Assembly: GCA_964016885.1 (NCBI GenBank)
Contig: OZ024753.1
Coordinates: 31,992,001 to 32,056,000 of the forward strand
From: Eledone cirrhosa
Taxonomy: Eukaryota
Length of the DNA: 64,000 bases
Reading direction: 5' to 3'
Each line of letters opens with the position of its first letter. Within the stretch, counting starts at the first letter, position 1. Below, piece by piece: positions 4,498 to 31,365 of this stretch. The position numbers and the translations under genes were made by a program. Below the pieces are notes generated by a model. That model ran no database searches. It was not told where the DNA came from and worked only from the letters and a program-made list of their open reading frames with translations.

Positions 4498-5703
4498 GTG
4501 AGTTCAGTTCATGAAAGCTCCATAGACCTCATCATGTACTCTCGTTATGTAGACGATATCAATATAGTTATAAGAACACCCCCACTAGAGAGCACTAACA
4601 AGTTTGATTTAGAACGTAGCACGATGGAAAGCATCCAGCAGATAGCTAATTCCATACACCAGAGTATAACTGTAACTATCGACTTCCCTTCCAAACACCC
4701 TAACAATAGACTACCTGTATTAGACACAGAACTCTGGATTAACACTATAGACGAGAGAGCCCAAATTCTCCACTCACACTATGCTAAACCCATGGCCTCC
4801 AAATACCTGATACTCAAAAACTCAGCAATGTCCAGTAGTGCTAAGTTTAATATTCTGATCGCAGATTTGGTACGAGTGATGAAGAATGTGTCCCGCATGT
4901 GCGACCCAACAGAAATGGAAAGACACATCCAACACTTCATCAACCGCATGCAGTTCTCTGGCTACAACCAAAGAGACAGAGTCAGAGTATACGAAGGAGC
5001 CATGGAAAAGTATAAGACCCTCATAGAACTGGACATGAAAGGAATTTGCCCATTATACAGGAGCAAATCATGGAATAGCTTAGATAGGGCTAGACATAAG
5101 ATAGGGAAAGCCACATCATGGTACGACAACCAGAGATACCAGAGTGTCATGTTTGTGGACGCCACCCCTGGAGGGAAATTAGCTAACCAGTGTAGAAAGG
5201 CCCTGAGAAAGACCCACTTAAAAATAAAGGTGGTAGAAAAGCCAGGAACCACCATAAAATCCCTGATCAGCAAAACCTACCCTTTTAAGAAAACCCACTG
5301 TACCAATAGGAAATGTATCATATGTAAGGTGAACCCCCGGATAAACTGTAAAACTAGAAACGTAGTCTATAGCATAAGATGTACAGAGGGTACTTGCAGA
5401 AACATGACAACAACATACATAGGTGAGACAGCTCGTAGCATAGGTGAAAGGATAGACCAACACTGGGGGGAATTAAAAGGACGAAAAAACGGGTCAGTAC
5501 TATACGAACATGCTAGACAACAACATGACGGTAACATAGACAACATAGAAATTAGAATAATATCTAAACATAGAAATGACCCAGCAGATAGGCAAATCAG
5601 AGAGGCCAGTGAAATAGAAATTAGAAGACCAAAGCTAAACAGAAAGAATGAATGGAATAACAACAACACCCAAACAAACAACACTGACCTAAGAGAAGTA
5701 TAA
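4498..5703 (+). mobile_element. Penelope-like element, 5'-truncated ORF (RT C-terminal part + GIY-YIG endonuclease)
   Basis: RYVDDI RT motif, LPVLDT, Cx4Cx2C linker, VVY..C..YIGET.RS...R...H and terminal E...LNRK typical of PLE GIY-YIG; open frame for 401 codons. Confidence 0.93.
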
Positions 5704-8063: not shown

Positions 8064-8263
8064 NNNNNNNNNNNNNNNNNNNNNNNNNNNNNNNNNNNNN
8101 NNNNNNNNNNNNNNNNNNNNNNNNNNNNNNNNNNNNNNNNNNNNNNNNNNNNNNNNNNNNNNNNNNNNNNNNNNNNNNNNNNNNNNNNNNNNNNNNNNNN
8201 NNNNNNNNNNNNNNNNNNNNNNNNNNNNNNNNNNNNNNNNNNNNNNNNNNNNNNNNNNNNNNN
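8064..8263. other. Assembly gap (200 N)
   Basis: Run of N. Confidence 1.
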
Positions 8264-11200
8264 AGTGTATGTCAGTGTCAGTGTATGTCAGTGTATGTCA
8301 GTGTATGTCTGTGTCAGTGTATGTCAGTGTCAGTGTATGTCTGTGTCAGTGTATCTCTGTGTCAGTGTATGTCTGTGTCAGTGTATGTCAGTGTCAGTGT
8401 ATGTCAGTGTCAGTGTATGTCAGTGTCTGTCTATGTCTGTATCTGTGTATGTCTGTGTCAGTATATGTCAGTGTCAGTGTATGTCAGTGTCAGTGTATGT
8501 CAGTGTCAGTGTATGTCAGTGTCAGTGTATGTCAGTGTATGTCAGTGTATGTCAGTGTCAGTATATGTCAGTGTCAGTGTATGTCTGTGTCAGTGTATGT
8601 ATGTGTCAGTGTATGTCAGTATCAGTGTATGTCAGTGTCAGTGTATGTCTGTGTCAGTGCATGTCAGTGTCAGTCTATGTCAGTGTCAGTGTATGTCAGT
8701 GTCAGTGTATGTCAGTGTCAGTGTATGTCAGTGTATGTCAGTGTATGTCTGTGTCAGTGTATGTCAGTGTCAGTGTATGTCTGTGTCAGTGTATCTCTGT
8801 GTCAGTGTATGTCTGTGTCAGTGTATGTCAGTGTCAGTGTATGTCAGTGTCAGTGTATGTCAGTGTCAGTGTATGTCTGTGTCAGTGCATGTCAGTGTCA
8901 GTGTATGTCAGTGTATGTCAGTGTCAGTGTATGTCAGTGTCAGTGTATGTCAGTGTCAGTGTATGTCTGTGTCAGTGCATGTCAGTGTCAGTGTATGTCC
9001 GTGTATGTCAGTATCAGTGTATGTCTGTGTCAGTGTATGTCTGTGTCAGTGTATGTCTGTGTCAGTGTATGTCAGTGTCAGTGTATATCTGTGTCAGTGT
9101 ATGTCAGTGTCAGTGTATGTCTGTGTCAGTGTATGTCTGTGTCAGTGTATGTCTATGTCAGTGTATGTCAGTGTCACTGTATGTCTGTGTCAGTGTATGT
9201 CTGTGTCAGTTTATGTCAGTGTCAGTGTATGTCAGTGGCAGTGTACGTCAGTGTCAGTGTATGTAAGTGTCAGTGTATGTCTGTGTCAGTGTATGTCAGT
9301 GTCAGTGTATGTCAGTGTATGTCAGTGTCAGTGTATGTCAGTGTCAGTGTATGTCTGTGTCAGTGTATGTCAGTGTCAGTGTATGTCAGTGTCAGTGTAT
9401 GTCTGTGTCAGTGTATGTCAGTGTACGTCAGTGTCAGTGTATGTCTGTGTCAGTGTATGTCAGTGTCAGTGTATGTCTGTGTCAGTGTATGTCAGTGTCA
9501 GTGTATGTCAGTGTCACTGTATGTCTGTGTCAGTGTATGTCTGTGTCAGTTTATGTCAGTGTCAGTGTATGTCAGTGGCAGTGTATGTCTGTGTCAGCGT
9601 ATGTCTGTGTCAGTGTATGTCAGTGTCAGTGTATGTCAGTGTCAGTGTATGTCTGTGTCAGTGTATGTCAGTGTACGTCAGTGTCAGTGTAAGTCAGTGT
9701 CAGTGTATGCCTGTGTCAGTGTATGTCAGTGTCAGTGTATGTCTGTGTCAGTGTATGTCAGTGTCAGTGTATGTCTGTATCTGTATATGTCAGTGTCAGC
9801 GTATGTCAGTGTCAGTCTATGTCTGTGTCAGTGTATGTCTGTGTCAGTGTATGTCTGTGACAATGTATGTCATTGTCAGTGTATGCCAGTGTCACTGTAT
9901 GTCTGTGTCAGTGTATGTCTGTGTATGACAGTGTCAGTGTATGTCAGTGTCAGTGTATGTCAGTGTCAGTGTATGTCTGTGTCAGTGTATGTCAGTGTCA
10001 GTGTATCTCTGTGTCAGTGTATGTCAGTGTCAGTGTATGTCTGTGTCAGTGTATGTCTGTATCTGTGTATGTCTGTGTCAGTATATGTCAGTGTCAGTGT
10101 ATGTCTGTGTCAGTGTATGTCAGTGTCAGTGTATGTCAGTGTCAGTGTATGTCAGTGTATGTCTGTGTCAGTGTATGTCAGTGTCAGTGTATATCAATGT
10201 CAGTGAATGTCTGTGTCAGTGTATGCTGTGTCAGTGCATGACAGTGGCAGTGTATGTCTGAGTCAGTGTATGTCTGTGTCAGTCTATGTCTATGTCAGTG
10301 TATGTCAGTGTCAGTGTGTGTCAGTGTATGGCAGTGTCAGTGTATGTCTGTGTCAGTGTATGTCAGTGTCAGTGTATGTCAGTGTCAGTGTATGTCTGTG
10401 TCAGTGTATGTCAGTGTCAGTGTATGTTAGTGTCAATGTATGTGTCAGTGTCAGTGTATGTCAGTCTCAGTATATGTCTGTGTCAGTGTATGTCAGTGTC
10501 AGTGTATGTCTATATCAGTGTATGTCAGTGTATGTCAGTGTATGTCAGTGTCAGTGTATGTCAATGTCAGTGTATGTCAGTGTATGTCTGTGTCAGTGTA
10601 TATCAGTGTCAGTGTATGTCAGAGTCAGTGTATGTCTGTGTCAGTTTATGTCTGTCTCAGTGTATGTCTATATCAGTGTATGTCAGTGTCTGTGTATGTC
10701 TGTGTCAGTGTATGTCAGTGTCAGTGTATGTCAGTGTCAGTGTATGTCTGTGTCAGTGTATGTCTGTGTATGACAGTGTCAGTGTATGTCAGTGTCAGTG
10801 TATGTCAGTGTCAGTGTATGTCTGTGTCAGTGTATGTCAGTGTCAGTGTATGTCTGTGTCAGTGTATGTCAGTGTCAGTGTATGTCAGTGTCAGTGTATG
10901 TCTGTGTCAGTGTATGTCAGTGTATGTCTGTGTCAGTGTATACCTGTGTCAGTGTTTGTCAGTGTCACTGTATGTCTGTGTCAGTGTATGTCAGTGTCTG
11001 TCTATGTCTGTATCTGTGTATGTCTGTGTCAGTATATGTCAGTGTATGTCAGTGTCAGTGTATGTCAGTGTCAGTGTATGTCAGTGTCAGTGTATGTCAG
11101 TGTATGTCAGTGTCAGTATATGTCAGTGTCAGTGTATGTCTGTGTCAGTGTATGTATGTGTCAGTGTATGTCAGTATCAGTGTATGTCAGTGTCAGTGTA

Positions 11201-14200
11201 TGTCTGTGTCAGTGCATGTCAGTCTATGTCAGTGTCAGTGTATGTCAGTGTCAGTGTATGTCAGTGTATGTCAGTGTATGTCTGTGTCAGTGTATGTCAG
11301 TGTCAGTGTATGTCTGTGTCAGTGTATCTCTGTGTCAGTGTATGTCTGTGTCAGTGTATGTCAGTGTCAGTGTATGTCAGTGTCAGTGTATGTCAGTGTC
11401 TGTCTATGTCTGTATCTGTGTATGTCTGTGTCAGTATATGTCAGTGTCAGTGTATGTCAGTGTCAGTGTATGTCAGTGTCAGTGTATGTCAGTGTCAGTG
11501 TATGTCAGTGTATGTCAGTGTATGTCAGTGTCAGTATATGTCAGTGTCAGTGTATGTCTGTGTCAGTGTATGTATGTGTCAGTGTATGTCAGTATCAGTG
11601 TATGTCAGTGTCAGTGTATGTCTGTGTCAGTGCATGTCAGTGTCAGTCTATGTCAGTGTCAGTGTATGTCAGTGTCAGTGTATGTCAGTGTCAGTGTATG
11701 TCAGTGTATGTCAGTGTATGTCTGTGTCAGTGTATGTCAGTGTCAGTGTATGTCTGTGTCAGTGTATCTCTGTGTCAGTGTATGTCTGTGTCAGTGTATG
11801 TCAGTGTCAGTGTATGTCAGTGTCAGTGTATGTCAGTGTCAGTGTATGTCTGTGTCAGTGCATGTCAGTGTCAGTGTATGTCAGTGTATGTCAGTGTCAG
11901 TGTATGTCAGTGTCAGTGTATGTCAGTGTCAGTGTATGTCTGTGTCAGTGCATGTCAGTGTCAGTGTATGTCCGTGTATGTCAGTATCAGTGTATGTCTG
12001 TGTCAGTGTATGTCTGTGTCAGTGTATGTCTGTGTCAGTGTATGTCAGTGTCAGTGTATATCTGTGTCAGTGTATGTCAGTGTCAGTGTATGTCTGTGTC
12101 AGTGTATGTCTGTGTCAGTGTATGTCTATGTCAGTGTATGTCAGTGTCACTGTATGTCTGTGTCAGTGTATGTCTGTGTCAGTTTATGTCAGTGTCAGTG
12201 TATGTCAGTGGCAGTGTACGTCAGTGTCAGTGTATGTAAGTGTCAGTGTATGTCTGTGTCAGTGTATGTCAGTGTCAGTGTATGTCAGTGTATGTCAGTG
12301 TCAGTGTATGTCAGTGTCAGTGTATGTCTGTGTCAGTGTATGTCAGTGTCAGTGTATGTCAGTGTCAGTGTATGTCTGTGTCAGTGTATGTCAGTGTACG
12401 TCAGTGTCAGTGTATGTCTGTGTCAGTGTATGTCAGTGTCAGTGTATGTCTGTGTCAGTGTATGTCAGTGTCAGTGTATGTCAGTGTCACTGTATGTCTG
12501 TGTCAGTGTATGTCTGTGTCAGTTTATGTCAGTGTCAGTGTATGTCAGTGGCAGTGTATGTCTGTGTCAGCGTATGTCTGTGTCAGTGTATGTCAGTGTC
12601 AGTGTATGTCAGTGTCAGTGTATGTCTGTGTCAGTGTATGTCAGTGTACGTCAGTGTCAGTGTAAGTCAGTGTCAGTGTATGCCTGTGTCAGTGTATGTC
12701 AGTGTCAGTGTATGTCTGTGTCAGTGTATGTCAGTGTCAGTGTATGTCTGTATCTGTATATGTCAGTGTCAGCGTATGTCAGTGTCAGTCTATGTCTGTG
12801 TCAGTGTATGTCTGTGTCAGTGTATGTCTGTGACAATGTATGTCATTGTCAGTGTATGCCAGTGTCACTGTATGTCTGTGTCAGTGTATGTCTGTGTATG
12901 ACAGTGTCAGTGTATGTCAGTGTCAGTGTATGTCAGTGTCAGTGTATGTCTGTGTCAGTGTATGTCAGTGTCAGTGTATTTCTGTGTCAGTGTATGTCAG
13001 TGTCAGTGTATGTCTGTGTCAGTGTATGTCTGTATCTGTGTATGTCTGTGTCAGTATATGTCAGTGTCAGTGTATGTCTGTGTCAGTGTATGTCAGTGTC
13101 AGTGTATGTCAGTGTCAGTGTATGTCAGTGTATGTCTGTGTCAGTGTATGTCAGTGTCAGTGTATATCAATGTCAGTGAATGTCTGTGTCAGTGTATGCT
13201 GTGTCAGTGCATGACAGTGGCAGTGTATGTCTGAGTCAGTGTATGTCTGTGTCAGTCTATGTCTATGTCAGTGTATGTCAGTGTCAGTGTGTGTCAGTGT
13301 ATGGCAGTGTCAGTGTATGTCTGTGTCAGTGTATGTCAGTGTCAGTGTATGTCAGTGTCAGTGTATGTCTGTGTCAGTGTATGTCAGTGTCAGTGTATGT
13401 TAGTGTCAATGTATGTGTCAGTGTCAGTGTATGTCAGTCTCAGTATATGTCTGTGTCAGTGTATGTCAGTGTCAGTGTATGTCTATATCAGTGTATGTCA
13501 GTGTATGTCAGTGTATGTCAGTGTCAGTGTATGTCAATGTCAGTGTATGTCAGTGTATGTCTGTGTCAGTGTATATCAGTGTCAGTGTATGTCAGAGTCA
13601 GTGTATGTCTGTGTCAGTTTATGTCTGTCTCAGTGTATGTCTATATCAGTGTATGTCAGTGTCTGTGTATGTCTGTGTCAGTGTATGTCAGTGTCAGTGT
13701 ATGTCAGTGTCAGTGTATGTCTGTGTCAGTGTATGTCAGTGTCAGTGTATGTCTATGTCAGTGTATGTCAGTGTCAGTGTATGTCTGTGTCAGTGTATGT
13801 CTGTCTCGGTGTATGTCTGTGTCAGTGTATGTCAGTGTAAGTGTATGTCTGTCTCAGTGTATGTCTGTGTCAGTGTATGTCTGTGTCAGTTTTTATCTGT
13901 GTCAGTGTATGTCTGTGTCAGGTAACGTCAGTGTCAGTGTATGTCTGTGTCAGTGTATGTCTGTTTCTGTGTATGTCTGTGTCAGTGTATGTCAGTGTCA
14001 GTGTATGTCAGTGTCAGTGTATGTCTGTGTCATTGTATGTCAGTGTCAGTGTATGTATGTGTCAGTGTATGTCTGTGGCAGTGTCAGTGTCAGTGTATGT
14101 CTGTGTCAGTATATATCAGTGTCAGAGTATGTCTGTGTCTGTGACTGTCAATGTATGTCTGTGTCAGTGTATGTCTGTGTCAGTGTATGTCAGTGTCAGT

Positions 14201-15519
14201 GTATGTCTATGTCAGTGTATGTCAGTGTCAGTGTATGTCTGTGTCAGTGTATGTCTGTCTCAGTGTATGTCTGTGTCAGTGTATGTCAGTGTAAGTGTAT
14301 GTCTGTCTCAGTGTATGTCTGTGTCAGTGTATGTCTGTGTCAGTTTTTATCTGTGTCAGTGTATGTCTGTGTCAGGTAACGTCAGTGTCAGTGTATGTCT
14401 GTGTCAGTGTATGTCTGTGTCTGTGTATGTCTGTGTCAGTGTATGTCAGTGTCAGTGTATGTCAGTGTCAGTGTATGTCTGTGTCATTGTATGTCAGTGT
14501 CAGTGTATGTATGTGTCAGTGTATGTCTGTGGCAGTGTCAGTGTCAGTGTATGTCTGTGTCAGTATATATCAGTGTCAGAGTATGTCTGTGTCTGTGACT
14601 GTCAATGTATGTCTGTGTCAGTGTATGTCTGTGTCAGTGTATGTCAGTATCAGTGTGTGTGTCAGTGTCAGTGTATATCAGTGTCAGTGTATGTCAGTGT
14701 CAGTGTATGTCAGTGTCAGCGTATGTCAGTCTCAGTTTATGTCTGTGTCAGTGTATGTCTATGTCAGTATAAGTCTGTGTCAGCGTATGTCTATGTCAGT
14801 GTATATCTGTGTCAGTGTATGACAGTGTCAGTGTATACCGGTGTCAGTGTATGTCAGTGTCAGTGTATGTCAGTGTCAGTCTATGTCTGTGTCAGTGTAT
14901 GTCTCTGTCAGTGTATGTCAGTGTATGTCAGTGTCAGTGTATGTCAGTGTCAGTGTATGTCTGTGTCAGTGTATGCCAGTGTCAGTGTATGTCTGTGTAA
15001 GTGTATGTCAGTATCAGTGTATATCACGTCAGTACATGTCTCTGTCAGTGTATCTCAGTGTATGTCAGTGTATGTCTGTGTCAGTGTATGTTTGTGTCAG
15101 TGTATGTCTGTGTCAGTGTATGTCAGTGTCACTGTATGTCTGTGTCAGTATATGTCTGTGTCAGTGTATGTCAGTGTCAGTGTATGTCTCTGTCAGTGTA
15201 TGTCAGTGTCAGTGTATGTCTGTCTCAGTGTATCCCAGTGTCAGTGTATGTCTGTGTAAGTGTATGTCAGTGTAAGTGTATGTCAGTGTCACTGTATGTC
15301 AGTGTATGTCAGTGTCAGTGTATGTCTGTGTTAGTGTATGTCAGTGTCAGTGTATGTCTGTGTCAGTGTATGTCAGTGTCAGTGTATGTCTGTGTCAGTG
15401 TATGTCAGTGTCAGTGTATGTGTCAGTGTCAGTGTATGTCAGTATCAGTGTATGTCAGTGTCAGTGTATGTCTGTGTCAGTGTATGTCTGTGTCAGTGTA
15501 TGTCAGTGTCAGTGTATGT
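8264..15519. repeat. Satellite of GTCAGT / GTCTGT / GTAT units (16-bp GTCAGTGTCAGTGTAT and 10-bp variants) with higher-order repeats
   Basis: Directly visible; rare variants and ORF-track entries recur at offsets 2973 (9267/12240, 9867/12840) and 454 (13841/14295, 13941/14395). Confidence 0.97.
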
Positions 15520-17506: not shown

Positions 17507-18477
17507 TAGCTGTACTAGACACAGAGCTCTGGTTAGATACCATTAATAACAAAAAACAAATCCTCCATTCCCATTATGCCAAACCCATGACTTCCAAACA
17601 TCTGATCCACCGAAACTCGGCCGTTTCGGACCATACCAAAATCAACATACTGATTGCGGATTTGGTACGGGTGATGAGAAACGTATCCCGCATGTGCAAC
17701 CCCGAAGAACTAGAGAGACATATACAACACTTCATCCACCGTATGCAGTTCTCTGGCTACAATCAGAGAGATAAAATCAGAGTGTATAGAGGAGCCAGAA
17801 CCAAATGGGAAAAAATGGTAAATAATGACATAAATGGGACCTGCCCCTTGTATAGGAGCAAATTTTGGAATAGAATAGAAAGAACTAGGAACAAGGCTAA
17901 TAGAATAAACTTATGGTATGATAGCAATAAATACCAGAGTGTAATGTTCATCGATACAACCCCTAGAGGTGAATTAGCTTACAAATTTAGAAGGGCCCTA
18001 AATAAACATAAACTCAATATTAAGATAGTAGAAAGACCAGGTACCTCCGTAAAAACACTTATTAGCAAGACATACCCTTTTCAAAGACCCTCATGTATAG
18101 ATAAGAAATGTATAACCTGTAAAATAAACCCCCATATTAACTGTAAAACTAGAAATGTAGTGTATAGCATAAGATGTACTGAAGGACAATGTAGAGACAA
18201 AAATATAGTGTACATAGGTGAGACAGCTCGTAGTGTAGGGGAATGGATAAATGAACACTGGCGAGACCTTCAAGATAGTAAAGAATCATCTGTACTCTAC
18301 CAACATGCTAAAATAGAACACAAGGGTAAATTAGAGAACATAGAAATAAAAATAGAATCTACACACAGAAAAGACGCAATGTTTAGACAAATTACAGAGG
18401 CAATAAACATAAAAGAATTACAACCAAAATTAAATAGAAAATATGAGTGGAACAGCAACATCACAACTTACAATTAA
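17506..18477 (+). mobile_element. Second Penelope-like element, 5'-truncated (RT thumb/linker + GIY-YIG)
   Basis: Starts right after (TA)n at LAVLDTELW; collinear with 4498-5703 (NILIADLVRVM, MQFSGYNQRD, CKTRNVVYSIRCTEG, YIGETARS, LNRK.EW). Confidence 0.93.
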
Positions 18478-19000: not shown

Positions 19001-19263
19001 GTTTCTTTTATTTGCCACCAGGGCATCAAAAGTGGGACAAGTACAATGGGGGGAGTTTACAAAACAAGGCGTCCTCAATAAGGAGGAGGCAATAACAATA
19101 TATAAAAATAAAATAAAATATAACAAAAATAAAATTTATAACAAAGTCCTCAATAGAGAGGAGGCGCCTTGGGGGGTCGCACACCCCCCCGAAAAAAGTG
19201 TGCAACCCTTTCCCCTCAGGAGCACAGAGAAGGGGTGCTCCCTTGGTCTTTCATCTTCCTCAC

Positions 19264-22200
19264 CTATAGTCTGATGTAGAGTGAAGGCCCATTCACACGG
19301 GCCATTCTCGCCACTTTCACCCATCTTTCATAGAAACGGCTGGGGTGCAGCACCTCTCTCTCCATCCTGATCCTTCTTCCGAAATGATATCGGAAGAAAC
19401 GGACCAGTTGTTGGCCAGAGAGAAAGGTGTCTGACCTCAGTCCTTTCAGACGCGTCCACCATACAACCTCTTTCGCCATGGCTATTACGCACTGAAACAC
19501 CGCCTCTCCTTCGTTTTTGAAGAGGGGAGGCGGCTTGATCGTTACAATAGACTCGGTGGTCAACCGGATCGGTCCCACCCTTGACAGCAGTTGTTCGACA
19601 TAGCCCCACAGATCGGCAATGCCCGAGCAGTGTACCAATGCGTGTGCAACGGTTTCCTCGTCGCACACGCATCTGGGACAGATCTTTTTCGATGGGTCCC
19701 TACCCGGGTGCCCGTGTCTGTAGAGCCTTTCTCGAATGGGCAGAGCCCTTCTGTAGCATTGCCAGGCCAGGGACCTCTGGAAGTTATCCATGGGTCCCGG
19801 GCTGAATGTCCTACCGAACAGGTTGGCCAGTTCGTCTTCCTCCATGCCTAGGGCTTCTCCGAGGGTGTCGTCGCACCTGCTAACCACCAGCCCTCTATAG
19901 AATGACGAGGTGGATTCTCCACTGACAGCCGGGTCCGCCTGCCAGAGAGCCGTGAGCGCCTGGGCACACTCGGTGTGCCAGGCGCCCAGTTTTCTCGGTC
20001 TTTGCTTGACCCAGGATTGCAGCTCGGTGAGTGAGACGAGTCTGGGAAAGGCTCGCCTCACAAACGGGGCCCACACCGGTTGACCGGAGAGGAATACCTG
20101 AAGGTGCCGTAGCCTTAATGCGTGTTTACGTATCATTAGCCACGGCATCCCCAGCCCTCCTTTCGAAGGGTGTTGACAGCAGATGGATCTCCTCACCATA
20201 GGAGCCCGCTTCTTCTAAAGGAATTGGAAGAGTGCGCGCTCCATTTTGGCGAGCGTTTCCCTTGGGCAAGGCACGACGGTCAGGCGGTAGTAGATGACGG
20301 ACGCTATATAAGTGTTCGCCACCTCCGCCCGACCTTTCAGGGACAGTTTGCACTCGGCCCACTTCTGGGTCAGTGCAAACACCCTGTTCGTCACCTCACC
20401 CCAGTTCTTCTCCACCTGGAGGTCTGGTCCGAACCAGACCCCGAGCAACTTCACCGGGCCCTCCGTCCAGCGCCCGACGACGCCATCGGAGGGCATCGAT
20501 TTGCCCCTCCACGTGCCGAGTTGCAGACCGATCGACTTGTCCCGGTTCAGCTTAGCCCCTGTAAACCTTTCGTACTCCTCCAGTAAGGTGCCGATCGCCC
20601 CGATTTCCGAGGCCGTCGACACCATTACTGTTACGTCATCGGCGTAGGCTGACACCGCTTTCCGCAATCCCGGTTCCAACGGGATGCCCTGCAACAACTC
20701 CAATTTCCGCAGCAGTGGCTCTAGAGTCATTACATACAGAAGGGAGGAGAGAGGGCACCCCTGTCGGATGGACCGCGCGATTTCGAACGGCTCCGAGAGG
20801 TAGCCGTTCACCTTGACCCTAGAGCAGATGCGGCTGCTGTGCATGGCATTGATCCAGCCCCTCAAAACGGTTCCGAAGCCTGCCGCCGCTAGCACCGCAT
20901 CCAGGTAACCATGGTCGACCCTATCGAATGCCTTAGATTGATCTAAGTTGATCAGGGCCCCACCAAAGCCGGGTTCGTTCCCAACCCTCTCTATGATGTA
21001 TCGCATGAGGTGGATTTTATCGTGGATGGACCTGGACGGGATAGCACATGTCTGCGCATCTCCCACCAGGTTGCCCACGACAAGCGTCAACCTCTTTGCT
21101 AGCACCTTGGCCAAAATCTGTAACTCTGTATTTAGCAGAGTTATGGGCCTGAAATTATTTATATCGTCCCCCTTGTTCTCGTCCTTCCTCACTAGCGTGA
21201 CTACGCCCTTGGTCACAGCACAGGGAATTCTCCCGTTCTGTTGCCAGTTGCAGTAGACCGCCTCGAGGAGATCGGGGAACAAGTCCGGCATAGCTAGATA
21301 TAGTTCGTATGGAAGACCATCGAGACCCGGGGATTTGCGTTTGCCGCATTGGCTCAGCACGTCCTCTATCTCAGCGGCTGAAATCGGCTCCTCGCAGGAC
21401 TTCGCCTCCCTGTCCGAGAGACGCGGCAGGCCGTCGAGGTATGGACCGAAGTCCACGTCCCCAACCGGCCCCCCGTCCCTTCCGAACAATCCGGCAAAGT
21501 GCTTTTGAAAAGCCTCGCACATCTGCTTAGGTTCAAAGATCACCCGTCCATCCTGGTCTCGCAAAGACCGGATAATGGATCTGCTCCATCTTTTGGCTTC
21601 TGTCACGCGGGCCCAGCTAACAGCTTTGGTCCCCTCGTTTCCCAGAGCACGTATTTTGCTTCGGACGATGCAGCCTTCGTGTTTCGCGTCGAAGAACTGG
21701 CCCAGGGCCGTTCTCGACGCTAGCACTCTGGCCACGTCGCCGCTTCTAATTGCCTCTTCTACACTATCTACCAACTCCCTTTCCTTCCTGTTTCTATTGG
21801 AGGCTAACTCCTTACTAAATTCTATAGAGACTACTCTAATCTCTCTTTTGAGAGATCCCCACCACCTGCTGTTGACGATTGCGCCCGTCAACCGCTCCCT
21901 AACTAAGGTGCTAATCCGGTCCCTGTAAGCCTTACTTGCCGGTAAGGACAAGTTGAGCTTCCAGTAACCGGGTCCCTGTCTATGAGTTCTGTCAAGGTTG
22001 ATCATGCAGGTCACTAACTTGTGGTCTGAATAGCCAACCATGCGCATTTTTGGACAACTTAAAAAGTTCTTATCCTTAATTCTAACTAAGAACCTATCTA
22101 GGTACGACCTAGATGATCCGCTACGATTTGCCCAAGTCCAGATTGGCGCAGTCGGAAAATCTAGTCGATATCTATCGGCCAGGTCAAATCGACCGATTAA

Positions 22201-22701
22201 CCCTTTGAGGCTATTACACCCCTCTCTATCGGGACAGGCCCCTACGTAGTCCCAGCGTGCATCTAGGATACCATTCCAGTCCCCCACTAATAGCAAGGAG
22301 CGGGACGTCCCTAGAAAAGTCTTCAGACGATGGAAGAAGTCCGGCCGCATTGACCCGAAAGGGCCGTAGGCGGCTACCAACCTAAACGCTCCGCCTTTAC
22401 CACTGCCAAGGTCCAGAACCACTAGTCGACCCTCCGGGTCCAAATGTACCATCTGTGTTGCGAGACCCAGATGTTTTTGCAGCAGAACGACAACTCCACC
22501 CCCACCTCCGGGCTGACAGAGAGATGCGTGCATCTCAAAGTCATCAAAGGTGGGGGCCAGCTGTCGCACGTTGCTGATCCGGGCCTCGCAAATAACCATC
22601 ACATCTATACGTTGTGACCTGAGGTCATTTAGAAGCATTGCTTGCTTCCAAGTTGAGCCCAGGCCACACGCATTTAAACAGCCTACTCTTAGCATAGCCA
22701 T
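19264..22701 (-). pseudogene. Tx1 ORF2 (APE endonuclease-RT-zinc knuckle) with one nonsense codon at 20215-20217
   Basis: VGDWN, YLDRF, SDH; FRPITLLN, DQSKAFDRV, QGCPLS, YADD; CPRC..ETVAHALVHC. TAG replaces the TGG (FLWK) of copy B. Confidence 0.93.
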
Positions 22702-22725
22702 GTTGGTGGTGAAGAGAAAAGGCAC

Positions 22726-24513
22726 TTACCTCTCTGCGTCCCGGGTATCGGGCTGCACAATTTCCATTAGGGTGGGGGATGGGTTGTTGGGTGGGGTGGT
22801 GGTTTGTGGAAGTGTAGGGGCATCAGTGTGTTGTGTGGTTGGGGAGCTTTGAGTTGTGTGGGTGTTTGGGGAGGGGGTGGGATAGTTTTTTAGGAGGACG
22901 CGGTTAATGGGCCCGGCGCAGGGGGGACCCACGTCCTCTTTAAAATTGTTTTTTAAAGTTTTATAGGTGTCCTGTGGGGCCTTAATCATTTTGAGGTGGG
23001 GGAAATCCCCTGCCTGGGTGAAGTTAGGCCCTTGTGTTTTTATTAGATTGTTGTTGTACACAATGTTTAACAGTTTTTTGTTTCTTGTATTTATGTATGT
23101 GTATGCATGTTTTTGTTTTTGTGTGGTTTTTTTTGTTTGCTGTTGTTGTGAGCTCTTTTGTGTTGGTGTCAGTGTTATGTTTTGGGGAGGGGTTGTTTTC
23201 ATTTGTGTGTCTGAGGTGTGTTTTCTTTTTTTTCTTTTGATTGTGTGGAAGTGCTCCTCCTCGTCTGACGACGAACTAGGGTCATCTTCCGCGTTGGAGG
23301 GGAGGGGTATATTTTCGGGTTGTGTTTGCGGTACGGGTGTTTTGGAAATTGTTTTTGTTTTTTGAGTGGAGGGGATGGGTTGGACATTGTTTTGTTTTGG
23401 TTTGAGCTGTGGTGGTTGTTTTTGTAGTGGTAGTTGTGGTGATTGTGTTGGTTGTGCAGTTGTTGGTGGTGTAGGCAGGATTGGGGCTTTCTTATTAAGT
23501 TGGGGACAGACAGCCCTCAGGTGACCTCTGGTTCCGCAGAGGTAACACGAGGGCCGTCTACCCTCAACGGTAATGTTGATGAAGGTTAGATCATCCAGTA
23601 TGACGCGTTCAGGGATCTGGGCGATCCTTTCGGGCCTCATTTGAACTACAAGTTCGAGGCTCGTTCCACTGAACGCGTCACCCGATGCCTTTCCCATGGA
23701 CACCAGCATGTCATCCTCCAGGTCCAGAAAACCTGTCAAAACCCACCATATGTCCATAATCGGCAGGATGGTGTGGATTTTTATTTTTTGTGTTCTTCTA
23801 CCCATGTACGTAGGGTAGAATGTGTATGCGGTGGGTGTGATTGGTTTGATGGACAGTTTCACTGCTGTGTCCCTGTCCTTCATGAGAATGGATAGACTCC
23901 CGTAGAGTCTATCCTTCTGAATGAAGATGATGTCCTTCATGACGTCTTTTAAAACCAGCTCTATCTCACTCTGTGATGGTTGAGCTGGTTTTTTACTTTT
24001 GTTCGAGATTGTCCTAAACATGACCGTGTTTAGGAGTCTCTGGCTTTTTAGTTCCGGTGGGGAATGGATTGTGAATGAACCATTTTCTCCGTACACTATA
24101 TATTTTTTCGCATCCGCCAGTAGCTCCTTCGCTTTTGTTATATCTACTGGCAGATAGTCGAGGGTTTTCCTTGTCGTCTCGGCGAAGGAGAAATTTTGTT
24201 TGTTTGTGTTGTTGTTGTCGTTGGTGGTGTTGTTGTTATCATTGTTGTTGTTGTCACCGTTATTGGTCTTGTTGTTGTTGTTATTGTTATTGGTGTTGTT
24301 TTCGTCCGTCGCATTGTTGTTGTTGTTGCTGTTGCTGCTGGTTCTTTGGGTTGTTGCCATGGCAACGTCAAGTTGTCGGTTAACAGGTGGAGAGAATTCT
24401 TCCTCTGGCTGACCTTTCTTCTTGACCTCTGCTACTGTGACAGTGGCAGGGGGAAGCTGTAAGTTTATCTTCCCCTTTCCTCCTTCGAATTTTGGTGAAG
24501 AAGCTTCGGCCAT
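22726..24513 (-). CDS. Tx1 ORF1 (gag-like nucleic-acid-binding protein), copy A
   Basis: 595 aa; CCHC knuckle CYLCGTRGHLRAVC, poly-Asn tract, P/Q/T-rich region, basic KRKKRK. Confidence 0.9.
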   Translation of the reverse strand: MAEASSPKFEGGKGKINLQLPPATVTVAEVKKKGQPEEEFSPPVNRQLDVAMATTQRTSSNSNNNNNATDENNTNNNNNNNKTNNGDNNNNDNNNTTNDNNNTNKQNFSFAETTRKTLDYLPVDITKAKELLADAKKYIVYGENGSFTIHSPPELKSQRLLNTVMFRTISNKSKKPAQPSQSEIELVLKDVMKDIIFIQKDRLYGSLSILMKDRDTAVKLSIKPITPTAYTFYPTYMGRRTQKIKIHTILPIMDIWWVLTGFLDLEDDMLVSMGKASGDAFSGTSLELVVQMRPERIAQIPERVILDDLTFINITVEGRRPSCYLCGTRGHLRAVCPQLNKKAPILPTPPTTAQPTQSPQLPLQKQPPQLKPKQNNVQPIPSTQKTKTISKTPVPQTQPENIPLPSNAEDDPSSSSDEEEHFHTIKRKKRKHTSDTQMKTTPPQNITLTPTQKSSQQQQTKKTTQKQKHAYTYINTRNKKLLNIVYNNNLIKTQGPNFTQAGDFPHLKMIKAPQDTYKTLKNNFKEDVGPPCAGPINRVLLKNYPTPSPNTHTTQSSPTTQHTDAPTLPQTTTPPNNPSPTLMEIVQPDTRDAER

Positions 24514-24732
24514 TTAAAAAAAATATTGACTTTTCAACAAGAAAAAACTTTTTTTTTGTTTAACTATTTCGCCTAAAGGCGTAGAATATTTTGAGAGACT
24601 GACCAGATCAAAGTTTGACCTGGCAGTCCCTCTACAAAATGGTACAAAAATTAAGGTTATCAGACAAGAATTTCTATAGAAATTTAAACAGAACTTACTC
24701 AGCAAGTTATACGCGTGTGTCCATCCCAGAGA

Positions 24733-24763
24733 TAATAGATAGATAGATAGATAGATAGATAGT

Positions 24764-24841
<78 letters not shown>
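24733..24841. repeat. (GATA)n spacer between Tx1 copies A and B
   Basis: About 27 units, directly visible. Confidence 0.97.
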
Positions 24842-24842
<1 letters not shown>

Positions 24843-25105
24843 GTTTCTTTTATTTGCCACTAGGGCATCAAAAGTGGGACAAGTACAAAGGGGGGAGTTT
24901 ACACAAAAAGGCGTCCTCAATAAGGAGGAGGCAATAACAAAATATAAAAATAAAATAAGATATAACAAAAAATAAAATTTTTAACAAAATCCTCAATAGA
25001 GAGGAGGCGCCTTGGGGGGTCGCACACACCCCCGAAAAAAGTGTGCAACCCTTTTCCTCAGGAGCACAGAGAGGGGGTGCTCCCTCGTTCCTTCCTCTTT
25101 TCCAC

Positions 25106-28100
25106 CTACAGGCTTATGTAAAGAGAAGGCCCATTCACACGGGCCATTCTCGCCACTTTCACCCACCTTTCATAAAAACGACTGGGGTGCAGCACCTCTC
25201 TCTCCATCCTGATCCTTCTTCCGAAATGATATCGGAAGAAACGGACCAGTTGTTGGCCAGAGAGAAAGGTGCCTGACCTCAGTCCTTTCAGACGCGTCCA
25301 CCATACAACCTCTTTCGCCATGGCTATTACGCACAGAAACACCGCCTCTGCTTCATCTTTGAAGGGGGGAGGCGGCTTGATCATTACAATAGACTCGGTG
25401 GTCAACCGGATCGGTCCCACCCTTGACAGCAGTTGTTCGACATAGCCCCACAGATCGGCTACGCCCGAGCAGTGTACCAATGCGTGTGCAACGGTTTCCT
25501 CGTCGCACACGCATCTGGGACAGATCTTTTTGGCGGGGTCCCTACCCGGGCGCCCGTGTCTGTAGAGCCTTTCTCGAACGGGTAAAGCCCCTCGGTAGCA
25601 CTGCCAGGCCAGGGACTTCTGGAAGTTGTCCATAGGTCCCGGGCTGAATGTCCTACCGAACAGGCTGGCCAGTTCGTCCTCCTCCATGTCTAGGGCTTCT
25701 CCGAGGGCGTCGTCGCACCTGCTGCGTACCAGCCCTCTATAGAATGTTGCGGTGGAGTCTCCACTGATAACCGGATCCGCCTGCCAGAGGGCGGTGAGCG
25801 CCTGGGCACACTCAGTGTGCCAGGCGCCCAGTTTTCTCGGTCTTTGCTTGACCCAGGATTGCAGCTCGGTGAGTGAGACGAGTCTGGGAAAGGTTCGTCT
25901 CACAAACGAGGCCCACACCGGTTGTCCGGTGAGGAATACGTAGAGGTGCCGTAGCCTTAATGCGTGTTTACGCATCATTAGCCACGGCATCCCCAGCCCT
26001 CCTTTCGAAGGGTGTTGACAGCAGATGGATCTCCTCACCATAGGAGCCCGCCTCTTCCAAAGGAATTGGAAGAGCGCGCGCTCCATCTTGGTGAGGGTTT
26101 CCCTTGGGCAGGGCACTACGGTCAGGCGGTAGTAGATGACGGACGCTATATAAGTGTTCGCCACCTCCGCCCGACCTTTCAGGGATAGTTTGCAATTGGC
26201 CCACTTCTGGGTCAGTGCAAACACCCTGTTCGTAACCTCCGCCCAGTTTTTCTCCACCTGGAGGTCCGGTCCGAACCAGACCCCGAGCAACTTCACCGGG
26301 CCCTCCGTCCAGCGTCCGACGACGCCATCAGAGGGCATCGGTCTGCCCCTCCACGTGCCGAGTTGCAAACCGATTGACTTGCCCCGGTTCAGCTTAGCCC
26401 CTGTGAACTTTTCGTACTCCTCCAGTAAGGTGCCGACCGCCTCGATTTCGGAGGCCGTCGACACCATTACTGTCACATCATCGGCGTAGGCTGACACCGC
26501 TTTCCGCAATCCCGGTTCCAAAGGGATGCCCTGCAACAACTCCAACTTCCGCAGTAGTGGCTCGAGAGTCAACACATACAGAAGGGAGGAGAGAGGGCAC
26601 CCTTGTCGGATGGACCGCGCGATTTTGAACGGCTCCGAGAGGTAGCCGTTCACCTTGACCCTAGAGCCGATGCGGCTGCTGTGCATAGCAGTGATCCAGC
26701 CCCTGAAAACGGGTCCGAAGCCTGCCGCCGCTAGCACCGCATCCAGGTAACCATGGTCGACCCTATCGAACGCCTTTGATTGATCCAAGTTGATCAGAGC
26801 CCCACCAAAGCCGGGTTCGTTCCCAACCCTCTCTATGATGTATCGCATGAGGTGGAGGTTGTCATGGATGGACCTGGACGGGATAGCGCATGTCTGCGCA
26901 TCTCCCACCAGGTTGCCCACGACAAGCGCCAACCTCTTTGCTAGCACCTTGGCCAAAATCTGTAACTCTGTATTTAGCAGAGTTATGGGCCTGAAGTTAC
27001 TTATTTCGTCCCCCTTGTTCTCGTCCTTCCTCACTAGCGTGACTACGCCCTTGGTCACAGTACAGGGAATTCTCCCGTTCTGTTGCCAGTTGCAGTAGAC
27101 CGCCTCGAGGAGATCGGGGAACAAGTCCGGCATAGCTAGATATAATTCGTAAGGAAGACCATCGAGACCCGGGGATTTGCGTTTGCCGCATTGGCCCAGC
27201 ACGTCCTCTATCTCAGCGGCCGAAATCGGCTCCTCGCAAGACTTCGCCTCCCTGTCCGAGAGGCGCGGCAGGCCGTCGAGGTATGGACCGAAGTCCACGT
27301 TTCCAACCGGCTCCCCGCCCCTCCCGAACAGTCGGGCAAAGTGCCTTTGAAAGGCCTCACACATCTGCTTAGGCTCAAGAATCGCCCGTCCATCCAGGTC
27401 TCGCAAAGACCGGATGGTGGATTTAGTTCCACTGTTGGCCTCTGTCACGCGGGCCCAGCTAACAGCTTTGGCCCCCTCGTTCCCTAGAGCACGTATTTTA
27501 CTTCGGACAACGCAGCCTTCGTGCTTCGCGTCGAAAAACTGGCTCAAAGCCGTTCTCGACGCTAGCACTCTGGCCACGTCGCCGCTTCTAATTGCCTCTT
27601 CTACTCTATCTATTAGCTCCCTTTCCTTCCTATTCCTATCCGCAGCTAGAACCTTACTAAATTCAATCGAGACTACTCTAATCTCTCTCTTTAGAGATAC
27701 CCACCACCTGCTGTTGACGATCGCTCCAGTCAACCGTTCCTTAACTAACGTACTAATCCGATTCCTGTAGGCTCTACTTGCCGGCAAGGACAAGTTGAGC
27801 TTCCAGTAACCGGGGCCCTGTCTATGCGTTCTATCAAGGTTGACCATGCAGGTCACCAACTTGTGGTCTGAATAGCCAACCATGAGCATTTCTGGACAAC
27901 TTAAAAAGTCCCTGTCCTTATTTCTAACTAAAAATCTATCTAGGTACGATCTAGATGATCCGCTGCGATTTGACCAAGACCAGGTTGGCACCGTCGGAAA
28001 ATCTAGTCGAAATCTATCGGCCAGGTCAAATCGGCCGAGTAACCCCTTGAGGCTGTTGCACCCCTCTCTATCGGGACATGCCCCTGCATAGTCCCAACGT

Positions 28101-28543
28101 GCATCCAGGATACCATTCCAATCCCCCACTAAAAGCAGGGAACGGGACGTCCCTAGAAAAGACTCCAGACGCTGGAAAAAGTCGGGCCGCTCTGTCCCAA
28201 AAGGGGCATATGCGGCTATCAGCCTAAAGGCTCTACCTTCACCACTGCCAAGGTCCAGCACCACCAGTCGACCCCCTGGGTCCACGTGAACTATCTGTGT
28301 TGCAAGGCCCATATGTTTTTGCAGCAGAACGACAACCCCACCCCCACCTCCGGGCTGACAGAGAGATGCGTGCATCTCAAAGTCGTCAAAGGTGGGGGCT
28401 AGCTGTCGCATGCTGCTGATCCGGGCCTCGCAGATAACCATCACATTTATAGATTGTGACCTGAGGTCATTTAGAAGCATTGCTTGCTTCCAAGACGAGC
28501 CCAGGCCACGCGCATTTAGACACCCTACTCTTAGCACAGCCAT
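25106..28543 (-). CDS. Tx1 ORF2 (APE endonuclease, reverse transcriptase, C-terminal zinc knuckle), intact
   Basis: LNARGL, ICE, VGDWN, SDH; SPGLDG, KAFDRV, RQGCPLS, AYADD; CPRC..H...C; first ATG at 28543. Confidence 0.95.
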   Translation of the reverse strand: MAVLRVGCLNARGLGSSWKQAMLLNDLRSQSINVMVICEARISSMRQLAPTFDDFEMHASLCQPGGGGGVVVLLQKHMGLATQIVHVDPGGRLVVLDLGSGEGRAFRLIAAYAPFGTERPDFFQRLESFLGTSRSLLLVGDWNGILDARWDYAGACPDREGCNSLKGLLGRFDLADRFRLDFPTVPTWSWSNRSGSSRSYLDRFLVRNKDRDFLSCPEMLMVGYSDHKLVTCMVNLDRTHRQGPGYWKLNLSLPASRAYRNRISTLVKERLTGAIVNSRWWVSLKREIRVVSIEFSKVLAADRNRKERELIDRVEEAIRSGDVARVLASRTALSQFFDAKHEGCVVRSKIRALGNEGAKAVSWARVTEANSGTKSTIRSLRDLDGRAILEPKQMCEAFQRHFARLFGRGGEPVGNVDFGPYLDGLPRLSDREAKSCEEPISAAEIEDVLGQCGKRKSPGLDGLPYELYLAMPDLFPDLLEAVYCNWQQNGRIPCTVTKGVVTLVRKDENKGDEISNFRPITLLNTELQILAKVLAKRLALVVGNLVGDAQTCAIPSRSIHDNLHLMRYIIERVGNEPGFGGALINLDQSKAFDRVDHGYLDAVLAAAGFGPVFRGWITAMHSSRIGSRVKVNGYLSEPFKIARSIRQGCPLSSLLYVLTLEPLLRKLELLQGIPLEPGLRKAVSAYADDVTVMVSTASEIEAVGTLLEEYEKFTGAKLNRGKSIGLQLGTWRGRPMPSDGVVGRWTEGPVKLLGVWFGPDLQVEKNWAEVTNRVFALTQKWANCKLSLKGRAEVANTYIASVIYYRLTVVPCPRETLTKMERALFQFLWKRRAPMVRRSICCQHPSKGGLGMPWLMMRKHALRLRHLYVFLTGQPVWASFVRRTFPRLVSLTELQSWVKQRPRKLGAWHTECAQALTALWQADPVISGDSTATFYRGLVRSRCDDALGEALDMEEDELASLFGRTFSPGPMDNFQKSLAWQCYRGALPVRERLYRHGRPGRDPAKKICPRCVCDEETVAHALVHCSGVADLWGYVEQLLSRVGPIRLTTESIVMIKPPPPFKDEAEAVFLCVIAMAKEVVWWTRLKGLRSGTFLSGQQLVRFFRYHFGRRIRMEREVLHPSRFYERWVKVARMARVNGPSLYISL

Positions 28544-28567
28544 GTTGGTGGTAAAGAGAAAAGGCAC

Positions 28568-30210
28568 TTACCTCTCTGCGTCCCGGGAAACGGGCCGCTC
28601 AATTTCCATGCTGGTTGGGGATGGGTTGTTGGGTGGGGTTGTGGTTTGTGGAAGTGAAGGGGCATCGGTGTGTTGTGGGGTTGGGGTGTTTGTCGTTGAG
28701 TGGGTGTCTGGGTGAGGTGGGGGGGTGAAATTTTTTAGGAGGACGCGGTTGATTGGTTTGGCGCAGGGGGGGCCCACGTCCTCCGTGAAATTTATTTTCA
28801 GTGTTTTGTACAAGTGCATTGGGACTTTTATCATTTTCAAATGAGGTAGTCCCACAGCAGTTATAAAGTTTGGCCCTTCGGTTTGGACCGAAGGGTTTGC
28901 TGAAATTGTTTTCCGTAATTCTTTGTTGTCTGTGTTCATGTATGTGTATTGTAATGTCTTTTTTTGTGTAGCAGTTAGTGTTGTGTGACAGGGAGGGGTG
29001 GTTTGTGTGTAGTTTGTGTTCTCTTGGGGGGGATTAAAGTTAACATGTGTGTCTGTGGTGCGTCTCCTCTTCTTTCTTTTTACTTGTTGGAAGGGATCTT
29101 TTTCGTCTTGCGACGAAAGAGGTTCGTCTTCCTTGTTGGGTGGGAGGGGTATGTTTTCTGGTAGTGTTTGCGGTGTGCGTGTTTTTGTATTTGTTTTGGG
29201 TGGGGAGGGATTGGGTGGGACAGTATTCTGTGTTATTTTTTCACGTGTTTGTTGTTGTTGTTGTTGTGGTGGTGGTGGTGGGGTTGTTGGTTTTTGTTGT
29301 TGTTGTGGTTGTTTTTGTTGTTGTAGTTGGGGTGGTGTTGGTGTTGGTAGCAGTGTTTTTTTCTGTGTGAGCTGGGGACAGGCAGCCCTCAGGTGACCTC
29401 TATTGCCACAGAGGTAACAGGAGGGACGCCTACCCTCCACAATAATGTTGAGGTGGGTACGGTCATCCAGCATGACGCGCTCAGGGATTTGGGCGATGCG
29501 TTCTGGCCTTATTTGGGTCAGAACTTCGATGCTCGTTCCACTGAACGCGTCGCCGGATGCCTTCCCTATTGAGATGAGGTTGTCCTCGTCTAAATTGAGG
29601 AAACCGGTTAGTAACCACCAGTAGTTTATGTTTGGGGTGATGGTGGTTATCCATATCCTCTGGGTTTTTTTACCCATGTAGGTAGGGAAGAAGGTGTAGT
29701 GTGTGGACCGAATTGGCGACACAGAGTATTTTTTTGCCGCCAATTCGTCTTTCATCAATATGGATAAACTCCCATAGAGTTTATCCTTTTGTATGAAAGT
29801 GATGTCTCTCATCGCGTCTTTCAAGACTAACTGAGTTTCCGCTTGAGATGGTTGCGCTGGTTTCTTTGTTTTATTTAAAATTGTTCGGAATACGACAGTT
29901 CGTAATTCCGTCTGTCTTTTTAGCTCCGGAGGTGAATGTATAGAAAACGATCCGTTTTCACCAAAAGACACATATTTCTTGGCTTTTTCCAGCATTTCTT
30001 TTGCTTTTGAAATATCTTCCAGCACATAAGCGACTGATAATTTAGCCGTTTGTGCAAAAGATATTTTGTTTTCGTTTTGGATATTAGTATTGTTTTGTTT
30101 CTCGTCGTTTGAGTTGTTTTCATCTTTGTTGTTGTTGTTGTCTTTCTCGTTTCGTGTGTGGATACTTGTGACGTTTGTGTTGTTGTTGTTTTTGTTGTCT
30201 TTATTGTTGC

Positions 30211-30241
<31 letters not shown>

Positions 30242-30418
30242 GTTTTCAAATTCTTGTGTAGTTGTGGCTACATCTAGTGGTCGGTCAACAGGTGAAGACA
30301 ATTCTTCCTCTCTCTGACCTCTGCCTTTGGCATCTGCTGCTGTGACAGTGGCAGGGGGAAGCTGTGAGTATAACTTCCCCTTTCCTTCTTTGATTGATGG
30401 TGAAGATGATTCAGCCAT
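28568..30418 (-). CDS. Tx1 ORF1, copy B
   Basis: CYLCGNRGHLRAAC knuckle; collinear with copy A ORF1; first ATG at 30418. Confidence 0.9.
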
Positions 30419-30648
30419 TTTTCTCAAAATAGGGTTTTTCGAAGTTTTTCGAAAGATAAAATGTTCACAATACTATTTCGCCCAAAGGCGCAGAATATTT
30501 TGAGAGACCGACCAGATCAAAATTTGACCTGGCAGTCCCTCTACAAAATGATACAAAAATGAAAGTTTACAGTTTACAATTTCCGTATGAATTTAAACAA
30601 AAACTTACCGAGCGAGCTCAGCACATGTGTCCATCGTAGATTAGATAA

Positions 30649-30760
30649 CTTTCTTTTTATTTGCCACCAGGGCATCAAAAAGTGGGACAAGTACAATGGG
30701 GGGAGTTTACATGAAAAGGCGTCCTCAATAAGGAGGAGGCAATAACAAAATATAAAAATA
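30649..30760 (-). mobile_element. 3'-terminal stub (copy C) of the same Tx1 family
   Basis: Near-identical to 19001-19110; bounded by (GATA)n(GA)n on one side and a short TATC-like spacer on the other. Confidence 0.9.
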
Positions 30761-30774
30761 GATAGATAGATAGA

Positions 30775-30817
<43 letters not shown>

Positions 30818-31365
30818 AGAGAGGGGGGGGGGCAGAGAGAGAGAGAGAGAGAGAGAGTCGACCCCGCCACTGAGCATATTCTTTTGATATCACCCTGGAA
30901 ATGATGAAAAGCAAAATTGACGTCTGTGAAATCTGAACTCAGAGCGCAGAAACGAATATCACAAACCATTCTATTCTATTGACTGTCTGAATTCGCCACT
31001 GTGCTATTCTATAGAGAAAGGTATAAAATGATATATTTTAACACGGTAGCATATATAACGATGCAAAAATATATATACCTTATCTTTTTGTGTTTGCATA
31101 CACATTTTTTTTATCTTTCCGAAATATTTTGCTTTCTTCCTGTGGTGTGAGTTATGTGGTATGTATTTTATATGTTTGAGAGTATTGGCAGAGGCGACCT
31201 GTGTGTATCGATAATGCTTTGATGCATAGTAACTGGAGAGATTTCTCTCTCGTTGCCATAGTGGTGACTAGGGATGATTTGAATATGGTACTTAAGGAAC
31301 TGATGAAAATCGAACAAAACAATACAAAACGATGTTATTCTTTGTGTAGATGTAGTTCTACCATC

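Follow-up and report, generated by a model that had tools for sequence, protein, structure and literature searches.

Background

Splice signals in the 5' untranslated region (5'UTR) have been described in several retroelements. In human L1, a donor about 46 My old and acceptors are conserved in the 5'UTR, most transcripts evade splicing, about 1.8% of the copies are spliced (SpIREs), and cis preference of the element has been described (PMC5860796). Introns have been reported in transcripts of L1, Tad, kangaroo-1 and TART (PMC1636488). An earlier note on the DNA studied here held that retrotransposition should purge introns and that their retention is typical of Penelope-like elements and not of L1/Tx1; as human L1 keeps 5'UTR splice sites and introns have been reported in L1, this premise is partly wrong. 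L1-Tx1 families are reported to have been recently active in Octopus vulgaris (PMC13282606), and the available part of a Chlamydomonas paper (PMC8226300) contains nothing on LINE introns.

We analysed the window, i.e. a whole stretch of 64,000 nucleotides from Eledone cirrhosa, in which two LINEs carry an intron-like cassette in their 5'UTRs. Like the human L1 donor G98U99, its donor belongs to an L1-group element, is long-conserved and lies near the 5' end inside the internal-promoter region; in both systems most RNA escapes splicing, as far as can be inferred here from the retained copies, and structure is proposed as a mask (PMC5860796). Unlike L1, where the acceptors lie 500-900 nt from the donor and about 1.8% of the copies are spliced, the AG here is 66-69 nt away and no spliced copy was found among about 1,720, and a cassette with its donor at about +30 persists across unalignable UTRs (PMC5860796). 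Penelope and Chlamys-3_cRei likewise have a short intron-type segment in the 5'UTR (75 bp in Penelope) over an internal promoter, which genomic copies retain; these elements have GIY-YIG domains, pLTRs and described introns, whereas ours are APE/RT LINEs in which the segment is seen only retained (PMC8557442). As in Drosophila TART, where short introns (53-104 nt, one of 489) occur in non-LTR UTRs, size and spacing are kept despite divergence, but the TART introns are antisense and have been shown to be spliced, whereas the segment here is sense and seen only retained (PMC1636488). The Tx1-clade elements Kibi and Koshi are APE-type non-LTR elements that insert in simple repeats, namely, (TC)n and (TTC)n, as ours do, but the targets here are (TATC)n in families A-E and (ATT)n in families F-J; a 5'UTR intron is not mentioned in the available parts of the Kibi and Koshi accounts (PMC4494074, PMC3812793). 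By analogy, the cassette would act most like the conserved but seldom used donor in the L1 5'UTR; in appearance, the 75-bp intron of Penelope comes closest. The cassette was not found in the literature outside Repbase reports, subscription journals and supplements.

Results

Two tandem LINE elements in the window

The two elements are arranged in tandem on the minus strand, and the following features were located:

24843..30639, minus strand, ends approximate: element A, a full-length two-ORF LINE of sublineage A1
28568..30418, minus strand: ORF1 of A, 616 aa, with an N/Q-rich start and one CCHC-like motif
25106..28543, minus strand: ORF2 of A, 1145 aa, with APE-type endonuclease, RT and zf-RVT
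19001..24729, minus strand, ends approximate: element B, a full-length LINE of sublineage B1, whose insertion site is the (TATC)n tail of A
22726..24513, minus strand: ORF1 of B, 595 aa, 56.5% identity to ORF1 of A
24731..24842, minus strand: (TATC)n microsatellite, the tail of A and the target of B
30650..30765, minus strand: fragment with the 3' end of a third copy, immediately upstream of A

The earlier note called both copies full-length, which holds for B in extent, yet its ORF2 is interrupted by a TAG at 20215-20217. ORF1 of A has no Pfam match at E<=0.001, and no homologue of it was found among 916 candidates. In ORF2, Pfam detects PF03372, PF00078 and PF13966 (the last below its own cut-off, E 4e-5); among solved sequences, human L1 ORF2p is the nearest (E 1e-48, residues 7-857), as compared with 1e-18 for R2, and ORF2 is 62.5% identical to the Argonauta hians protein P0057, which points to an octopod host. 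Thus, as in L1-group non-LTR elements, an ORF2 with APE, RT and a C-terminal cysteine-rich domain lies behind ORF1, and with two ORFs and an APE domain the elements differ from Penelope-like elements, which have a GIY-YIG domain, a single ORF and a pLTR. The simple-repeat targets, (TATC)n for A-E and (ATT)n for F-J, are a Tx1-like trait; at 60 loci, chosen as best hits, (TATC)n lies upstream of the A and B 5' ends and is often the tail of another copy. Assignment of A and B to Tx1 is tentative and draws on architecture, targeting and the label in the earlier note.

Between an assembly gap (N at 8064-8263) and the 5' end of element A, the window shares 22,384 bp (positions 8264-30647) with G000:C28:97955577-97977960 at 99.987% identity. 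The likely cause is either mis-joining across the near-identical A element or duplication in the very recent past. Accordingly, the A and B pair in the window is not independent of that locus. Positions 8264-15500 hold about 7 kb of degenerate satellite made of CAGTGT/ATGT words. Two related ORFs at 4534-5703 and 17587-18477, both on the plus strand, have a Y(I/V)GET-type motif near the C-terminus and no Pfam match at E<=0.001; they resemble RT/GIY-YIG ends of Penelope-like elements.

An intron-like segment near the 5' end of both elements

Each 5'UTR begins with a short leader followed by the segment:

30609..30639, minus strand: would-be exon 1 of A, a 5' leader with GCTCGCTCG at its end
30541..30608, minus strand: 68-nt intron-like segment of A, with donor GTAAGT at 30608-30603, T-rich tract, TTCAT at about -20 and TTTGTAG
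24699..24729, minus strand: 5' leader of B (would-be exon 1)
24632..24698, minus strand: 67-nt intron-like segment of B, with donor GTAAGT at 24698-24693, TTAAT at about -20 and TTTGTAG

The GT-AG segments that the earlier note had placed at 24698-24632 (67 nt) and 30608-30541 (68 nt) are correct in coordinates and length, and so is the distance of 26 nt from ATG to GTAAGT in both copies, counted from the A of the ATG in GATGGACAC. GATGGACAC itself had been described as 5'-terminal; it does lie near the 5' end, but 3-5 further shared bases precede it, reading TAC/CTAC in A and TGG/CTGG in B between the (TATC)n target and GATGGACAC. The segment of B runs from GTAAGT at 24698 to ...CATTTTGTAG at 24632, with CATTTTGTAG common to A and B, and that of A contains no AG between the donor and the segment end. 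The middle, described earlier as diverged, is no more so than the leader between the two lineages: A1 and B1 match in 29 of the 41 columns of +7..-21, as compared with 18 of 27 in the leader. When the UTR was dinucleotide-shuffled 3,000 times, a 6/6 GTRAGT fell within +25..+50 in 0.6% of the shuffles for A and 1.3% for B. Removal of the segment would neither delete the upstream ATG nor fuse the ATG frame to ORF1. AATAAA sites lie 435 and 765 nt from the start of A and 945 nt from that of B.

Splice signals are conserved across thirteen sublineages

We aligned copies from the element's own 3.0-Gb genome and sorted 143 rows by diagnostic words into 13 sublineages, A1-E3, using for the lineage count 137 of the 152 de-duplicated copies; copies L205-L219, chosen for a changed +1 base, were left out of this count, the A1 and B1 rows are best hits to the window, and two of the 13 lineages are single copies. 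In the majority letters of all 13 sublineages, GT, the AGT of +4..+6 and AG are invariant, only A or G occurs at +3, and the commonest segment length is 67-69 nt. The splice-critical columns are invariant in 7 of 7 cases versus 29 of 94 leader-plus-segment columns (P 1.5e-4); restricted to the 72 columns common to A1 and B1 the value is P 0.001, and for GT/AG alone P 0.023, all of these being generous as neither columns nor lineages are independent. Between A1 and E1, 23 of the 41 columns of the segment interior are alike. As to the conservation of GT and AG that the earlier note had proposed to check, both are invariant across the 13 sublineages where most leader-plus-segment columns are not. 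Judged from these alignments, the splice-signal anatomy of the segment is more than chance and deeply conserved.

Donor-like sites recur in families with weakly alignable UTRs

Families F-J were recovered with a foreign ORF2 query (P0017) or a neighbouring 3'-end query, i.e., with splice signals ignored. They are (ATT)n-targeted, their ORF2 is about 62-70% identical to that of A, and their first 100 nt are weakly alignable to A (z 1.4-6.0, compared with 19-22 for B and C). In all five families, a donor-like site is present close to the 5' end, within +29 to +48 (a slash marks the would-be splice junction):

Family F, +44: AAG/GTTTGT
Family G, +33: CC/GTGAGT
Family H, +32: CA/GTAAGT
Family I, +44: AAG/GTTCGT
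Family J, +31: CT/GTAAGG

Two single copies met by chance have AAG/GTTGGT and TC/GTAAGT at +37, and one related copy among the matches listed has ATGAGT at the donor place. GTRAGT is matched 6/6 in A-E, G, H, I2 and L, and all 11 UTRs scored match 6-8 of the 9 positions of the customary U1 consensus. The exonic AAG is perfect where the intronic six are weak (F, I and K), and the exonic part is poor where the intronic part is perfect. Such a trade-off is expected for U1 pairing and not for the DNA site of a protein. Combined over the held-out families E-J, the shuffle P values are 5e-5 (6-mer) and 8e-4 (9-mer), which are optimistic given shared descent. Single families give modest 9-mer values of 0.01 to 0.27, those of B, G and J being 0.18-0.27, and several families have 9-mers that match as well or better at other places of the UTR or in early ORF1. 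A GCTC-like motif just precedes the donor in most families, and a T-rich tract follows it in all of them.

A scan of metagenomes for relatives returned distant ones only, with best segments of 25-42%. At least five (ATT)n-targeting families were encountered (L316-L335, L338-L351, L356-L402) beside A-E on (TATC)n; given the ORF2 identity across the two groups, we interpret the difference as a change of target inside a single lineage, which could help to map the specificity of the endonuclease. In family F (L224:4900-4870 region and related loci), the spacer between ORF1 and ORF2 reads ...GAAGTAAGGTAAGTGG..., another strong donor-like site just before ORF2. In L233 / L326 (G000:C28:51287971-51293555), an H-type 5'UTR and ORF1 start are combined with an ORF2 100% identical to that of family G, a mosaic whose sequence suggests recombination or 5'UTR/ORF1 swapping between families.

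The acceptor is variable and adjoins a hairpin

The acceptor is TTGTAG at about 67 nt in A-D and J, in the latter being the first AG beyond 40 nt, AAG at 69 nt in most E copies, and TAAG at 66-70 nt in F, G, H and L; in the last three, further AGs close by are candidates too. An AG at 66 nt in family I is present in three of the five copies read and absent from the scored one. The AG distance is 66-69 nt in A-E, F, G (from the second GT), H, J, L and the three I copies. TTNAT, a candidate branch point but a common word in T-rich DNA, lies at about -20 before AG in A-D and is shifted by one column in E. Downstream of the AG, we found the following structures:

30502..30541, minus strand: conserved 40-nt hairpin of A, its first pair formed by the G of the acceptor AG
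24593..24632, minus strand: conserved hairpin of B, 40 nt long, in which the G of the acceptor AG is the first base
30479..30490, minus strand: small GC hairpin of A, also present in C and E in a shifted register

In all six copies folded, the 100 nt surrounding and following the AG fold far better than shuffles (z -2.75 to -6.16), whereas the leader plus segment do not (z -0.3 to 1.1); the whole-UTR folds have z -3.7 and -3.85. Three compensatory hairpin pairs distinguish A-D from E and amount to one event on the A-D/E branch, and the RNAalifold consensus on the hairpin alignment is weak (-1.48 kcal/mol) owing to a register shift of the inner stem. Pairing of the acceptor G is predicted in 5 of 5 UTRs folded (P 0.87-0.99), and at the hairpin foot this G is paired in 23 of the 24 aligned copies, as compared with 8 of 24 for the A of AG. 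The donor is predicted to be mostly paired in A, B and C, which would hinder U1. Strong downstream hairpins occur in G, H, I and J, and F scored none in the interval used for that family.

Two other structural candidates were dropped: an HDV-like fold of the 5'UTR, since the fold signal is confined to the part after AG and Rfam (E<=10, 24300-31000) returned seven matches, none in either 5'UTR and none a ribozyme; and a long-range pairing of GATGG with the tract end, which fails in C and D (39 sequences).

Genomic copies and a probable RNA run retain the segment

The earlier note had also proposed looking for copies lacking exactly the segment. None was found: 711 A/B-type 5' ends, 126 family J 5' ends and 883 G/H-type 5' ends (a few of these by chance) have the segment, and spliced forms number zero in each group, for G/H among the 24 short-gap matches read. 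Overall, there are 0 spliced copies versus about 1,720 matches with the segment (95% upper bound 0.17%), while about 31 would be expected at the 1.8% rate of human L1, so the copies that mark a SpIRE former are missing here. Among 15 matches with a non-G after the leader, 10 retain the segment (with a point change or small deletion), three are chance matches, two run into unrelated DNA, and none joins the leader to the element's acceptor. A wider pattern gave 228 matches, and the 100 listed among them, nearly all an ORF2 look-alike, included no spliced UTR.

Two loci, L210 and L211, keep only the 5' leader, with unrelated DNA beginning right at the donor position; they may stem from splicing of the leader to host sequence followed by retrotransposition. 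At L133:1600-1700, the UTR hairpin is joined directly to mid-ORF1.

X4 is one of four sequencing runs, none of them on record as RNA; it is unstranded and kept as contigs, from which rare variants are dropped. Judged from its depth profile alone, X4 is probably RNA: the depth reaches 6,500 in the 3'UTR versus 0-3 in the A-type UTR, where the three large runs X1-X3 give a roughly tenfold ratio at the shared hairpin. A 368-nt contig of X4 (depth 31.5) covers 24364-24730, differs from B by 2 letters and 3 gaps, and retains the segment through into ORF1. No joint of leader and acceptor occurs in the contigs of this probably-RNA run, in which rare forms are dropped. X4 holds at depth only the youngest B1 5'UTR, the A1 UTR being without cover despite many identical genomic copies; this gap over the A segment was given no weight as to splicing. 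A depth-2 contig across the acceptor was rejected as evidence on splicing, since it matches L132, a copy that lost the donor.

Discussion

The cassette is lineage-wide, and all the retrotransposed copies that we examined have retained it, with its donor at about +30, T-rich tract, AG and hairpin. We favour the reading that it is a promoter-proximal U1 site within a normally retained intron-like segment, to which we assign a probability of roughly 0.5. If the 5' end of the element is its transcription start, the donor near +30 would recruit U1 snRNP beside the internal promoter without splicing, and U1 pairing could aid transcription or guard the A-rich transcript from early cleavage at the AATAAA sites of ORF1. 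Protection of transcripts by U1 from premature cleavage is known as telescripting. The acceptor, which is AAG in several families and has its G paired at the hairpin foot, would be kept weak, so that the full-length RNA with its promoter is copied; rare splicing may still occur. That the donor varies only as U1 pairing allows, with A or G at +3 and GT and AGT fixed, favours this reading. However, the fixed distance of 66-69 nt to the AG needs another reason if U1 binding is all that matters, and a real short intron fits it at least as well; likewise, the partly conserved interior (23 of 41 columns between A1 and E1) is promoter-like behaviour and counts against U1 binding as the only function.

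Alternatively, the segment could be a genuine short intron under regulation, whose splicing in certain tissues or at certain stages would give a translated or dead-end mRNA, with only the unspliced RNA reverse-transcribed. The GT...AG spacing of 67-69 nt in 13 of 13 A-E sublineages and of 67 nt in J, the TTNAT about 20 nt before AG in A-D and the precedent of the 75-bp Penelope 5'UTR intron over an internal promoter (PMC8557442) agree with this, and the RNA evidence is limited to one run of one unspecified tissue. Yet zero spliced copies versus about 1,720 (upper bound 0.17%) is far from the 31 or so expected at L1's 1.8%, and the element's proteins would have to avoid their own spliced mRNA, contrary to L1-type cis preference (PMC5860796). 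Splicing would leave both ORFs and the 3' end in the mRNA, so that dead spliced copies would be expected under such a preference, which we infer to apply here. Moreover, the X4 contig shows retention, most E copies and families F, G and I have AAG as the acceptor, which in G and H is also ambiguous, and removal of the segment leaves the upstream ATG and opens no frame into ORF1. We thus regard a regulated intron as doubtful. A more specific form, in which a short intron over the internal promoter has a hairpin-gated acceptor and its spliced RNA is made in some cells and never copied back, seems rather improbable to us; if true, it would let the element sort template from message and escape L1-type cis preference. 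The proposal in the earlier note that splicing separates an unspliced template from a spliced mRNA therefore finds no support in the genomic copies (0 versus about 1,720) or in the X4 contig, which retains the segment, whereas the splice-signal anatomy on which it was built is real and wider than first seen.

It is unlikely that the signals are internal-promoter DNA elements (a GCTC..GT(A/G)AG box near +30 and an A/T tract) that merely resemble splice sites. In favour, the position is fixed relative to the 5' end, most families have GCTC ahead of the donor, part of the interior is conserved, no spliced product was seen, and the L1 donor has been proposed to sit in a RUNX3 site (PMC5860796). 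Against this, the GTAAGT, GTGAGT, GTAAGG and AAG/GT(T or A)NGT forms keep 6-8 of 9 U1 matches and share no single DNA word, and the AG distance is constant. Still less probable, in our judgement very much so, is that the whole 5'UTR is one RNA structure, such as a ribozyme or protein-binding signal, in which GT and AG are kept only through pairing. The z values of the whole UTR (-3.7 and -3.85) and the acceptor G paired in 23 of 24 aligned copies speak for structure, but the fold signal comes from the part after AG (leader plus segment z about 0-1), neither UTR has an Rfam match at E<=10, the pairing of GATGG with the tract end fails in C and D, the A of AG is paired in 8 of 24 copies only, and the donor in unalignable UTRs is left unexplained.

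LINEs often replace their 5'UTRs. Given such frequent replacement, the survival of the cassette across barely alignable UTRs suggests that it is genuinely needed. Should the donor recruit U1 with no splicing, these young and abundant elements would form a compact natural system in which to test what U1 does close to promoters in an invertebrate, and the retention of the L1 donor could be explained otherwise than by RUNX3. If instead the segment is spliced, for which the would-be junction is fixed and common to hundreds of identical copies, a LINE would be shown to separate its message from its template.
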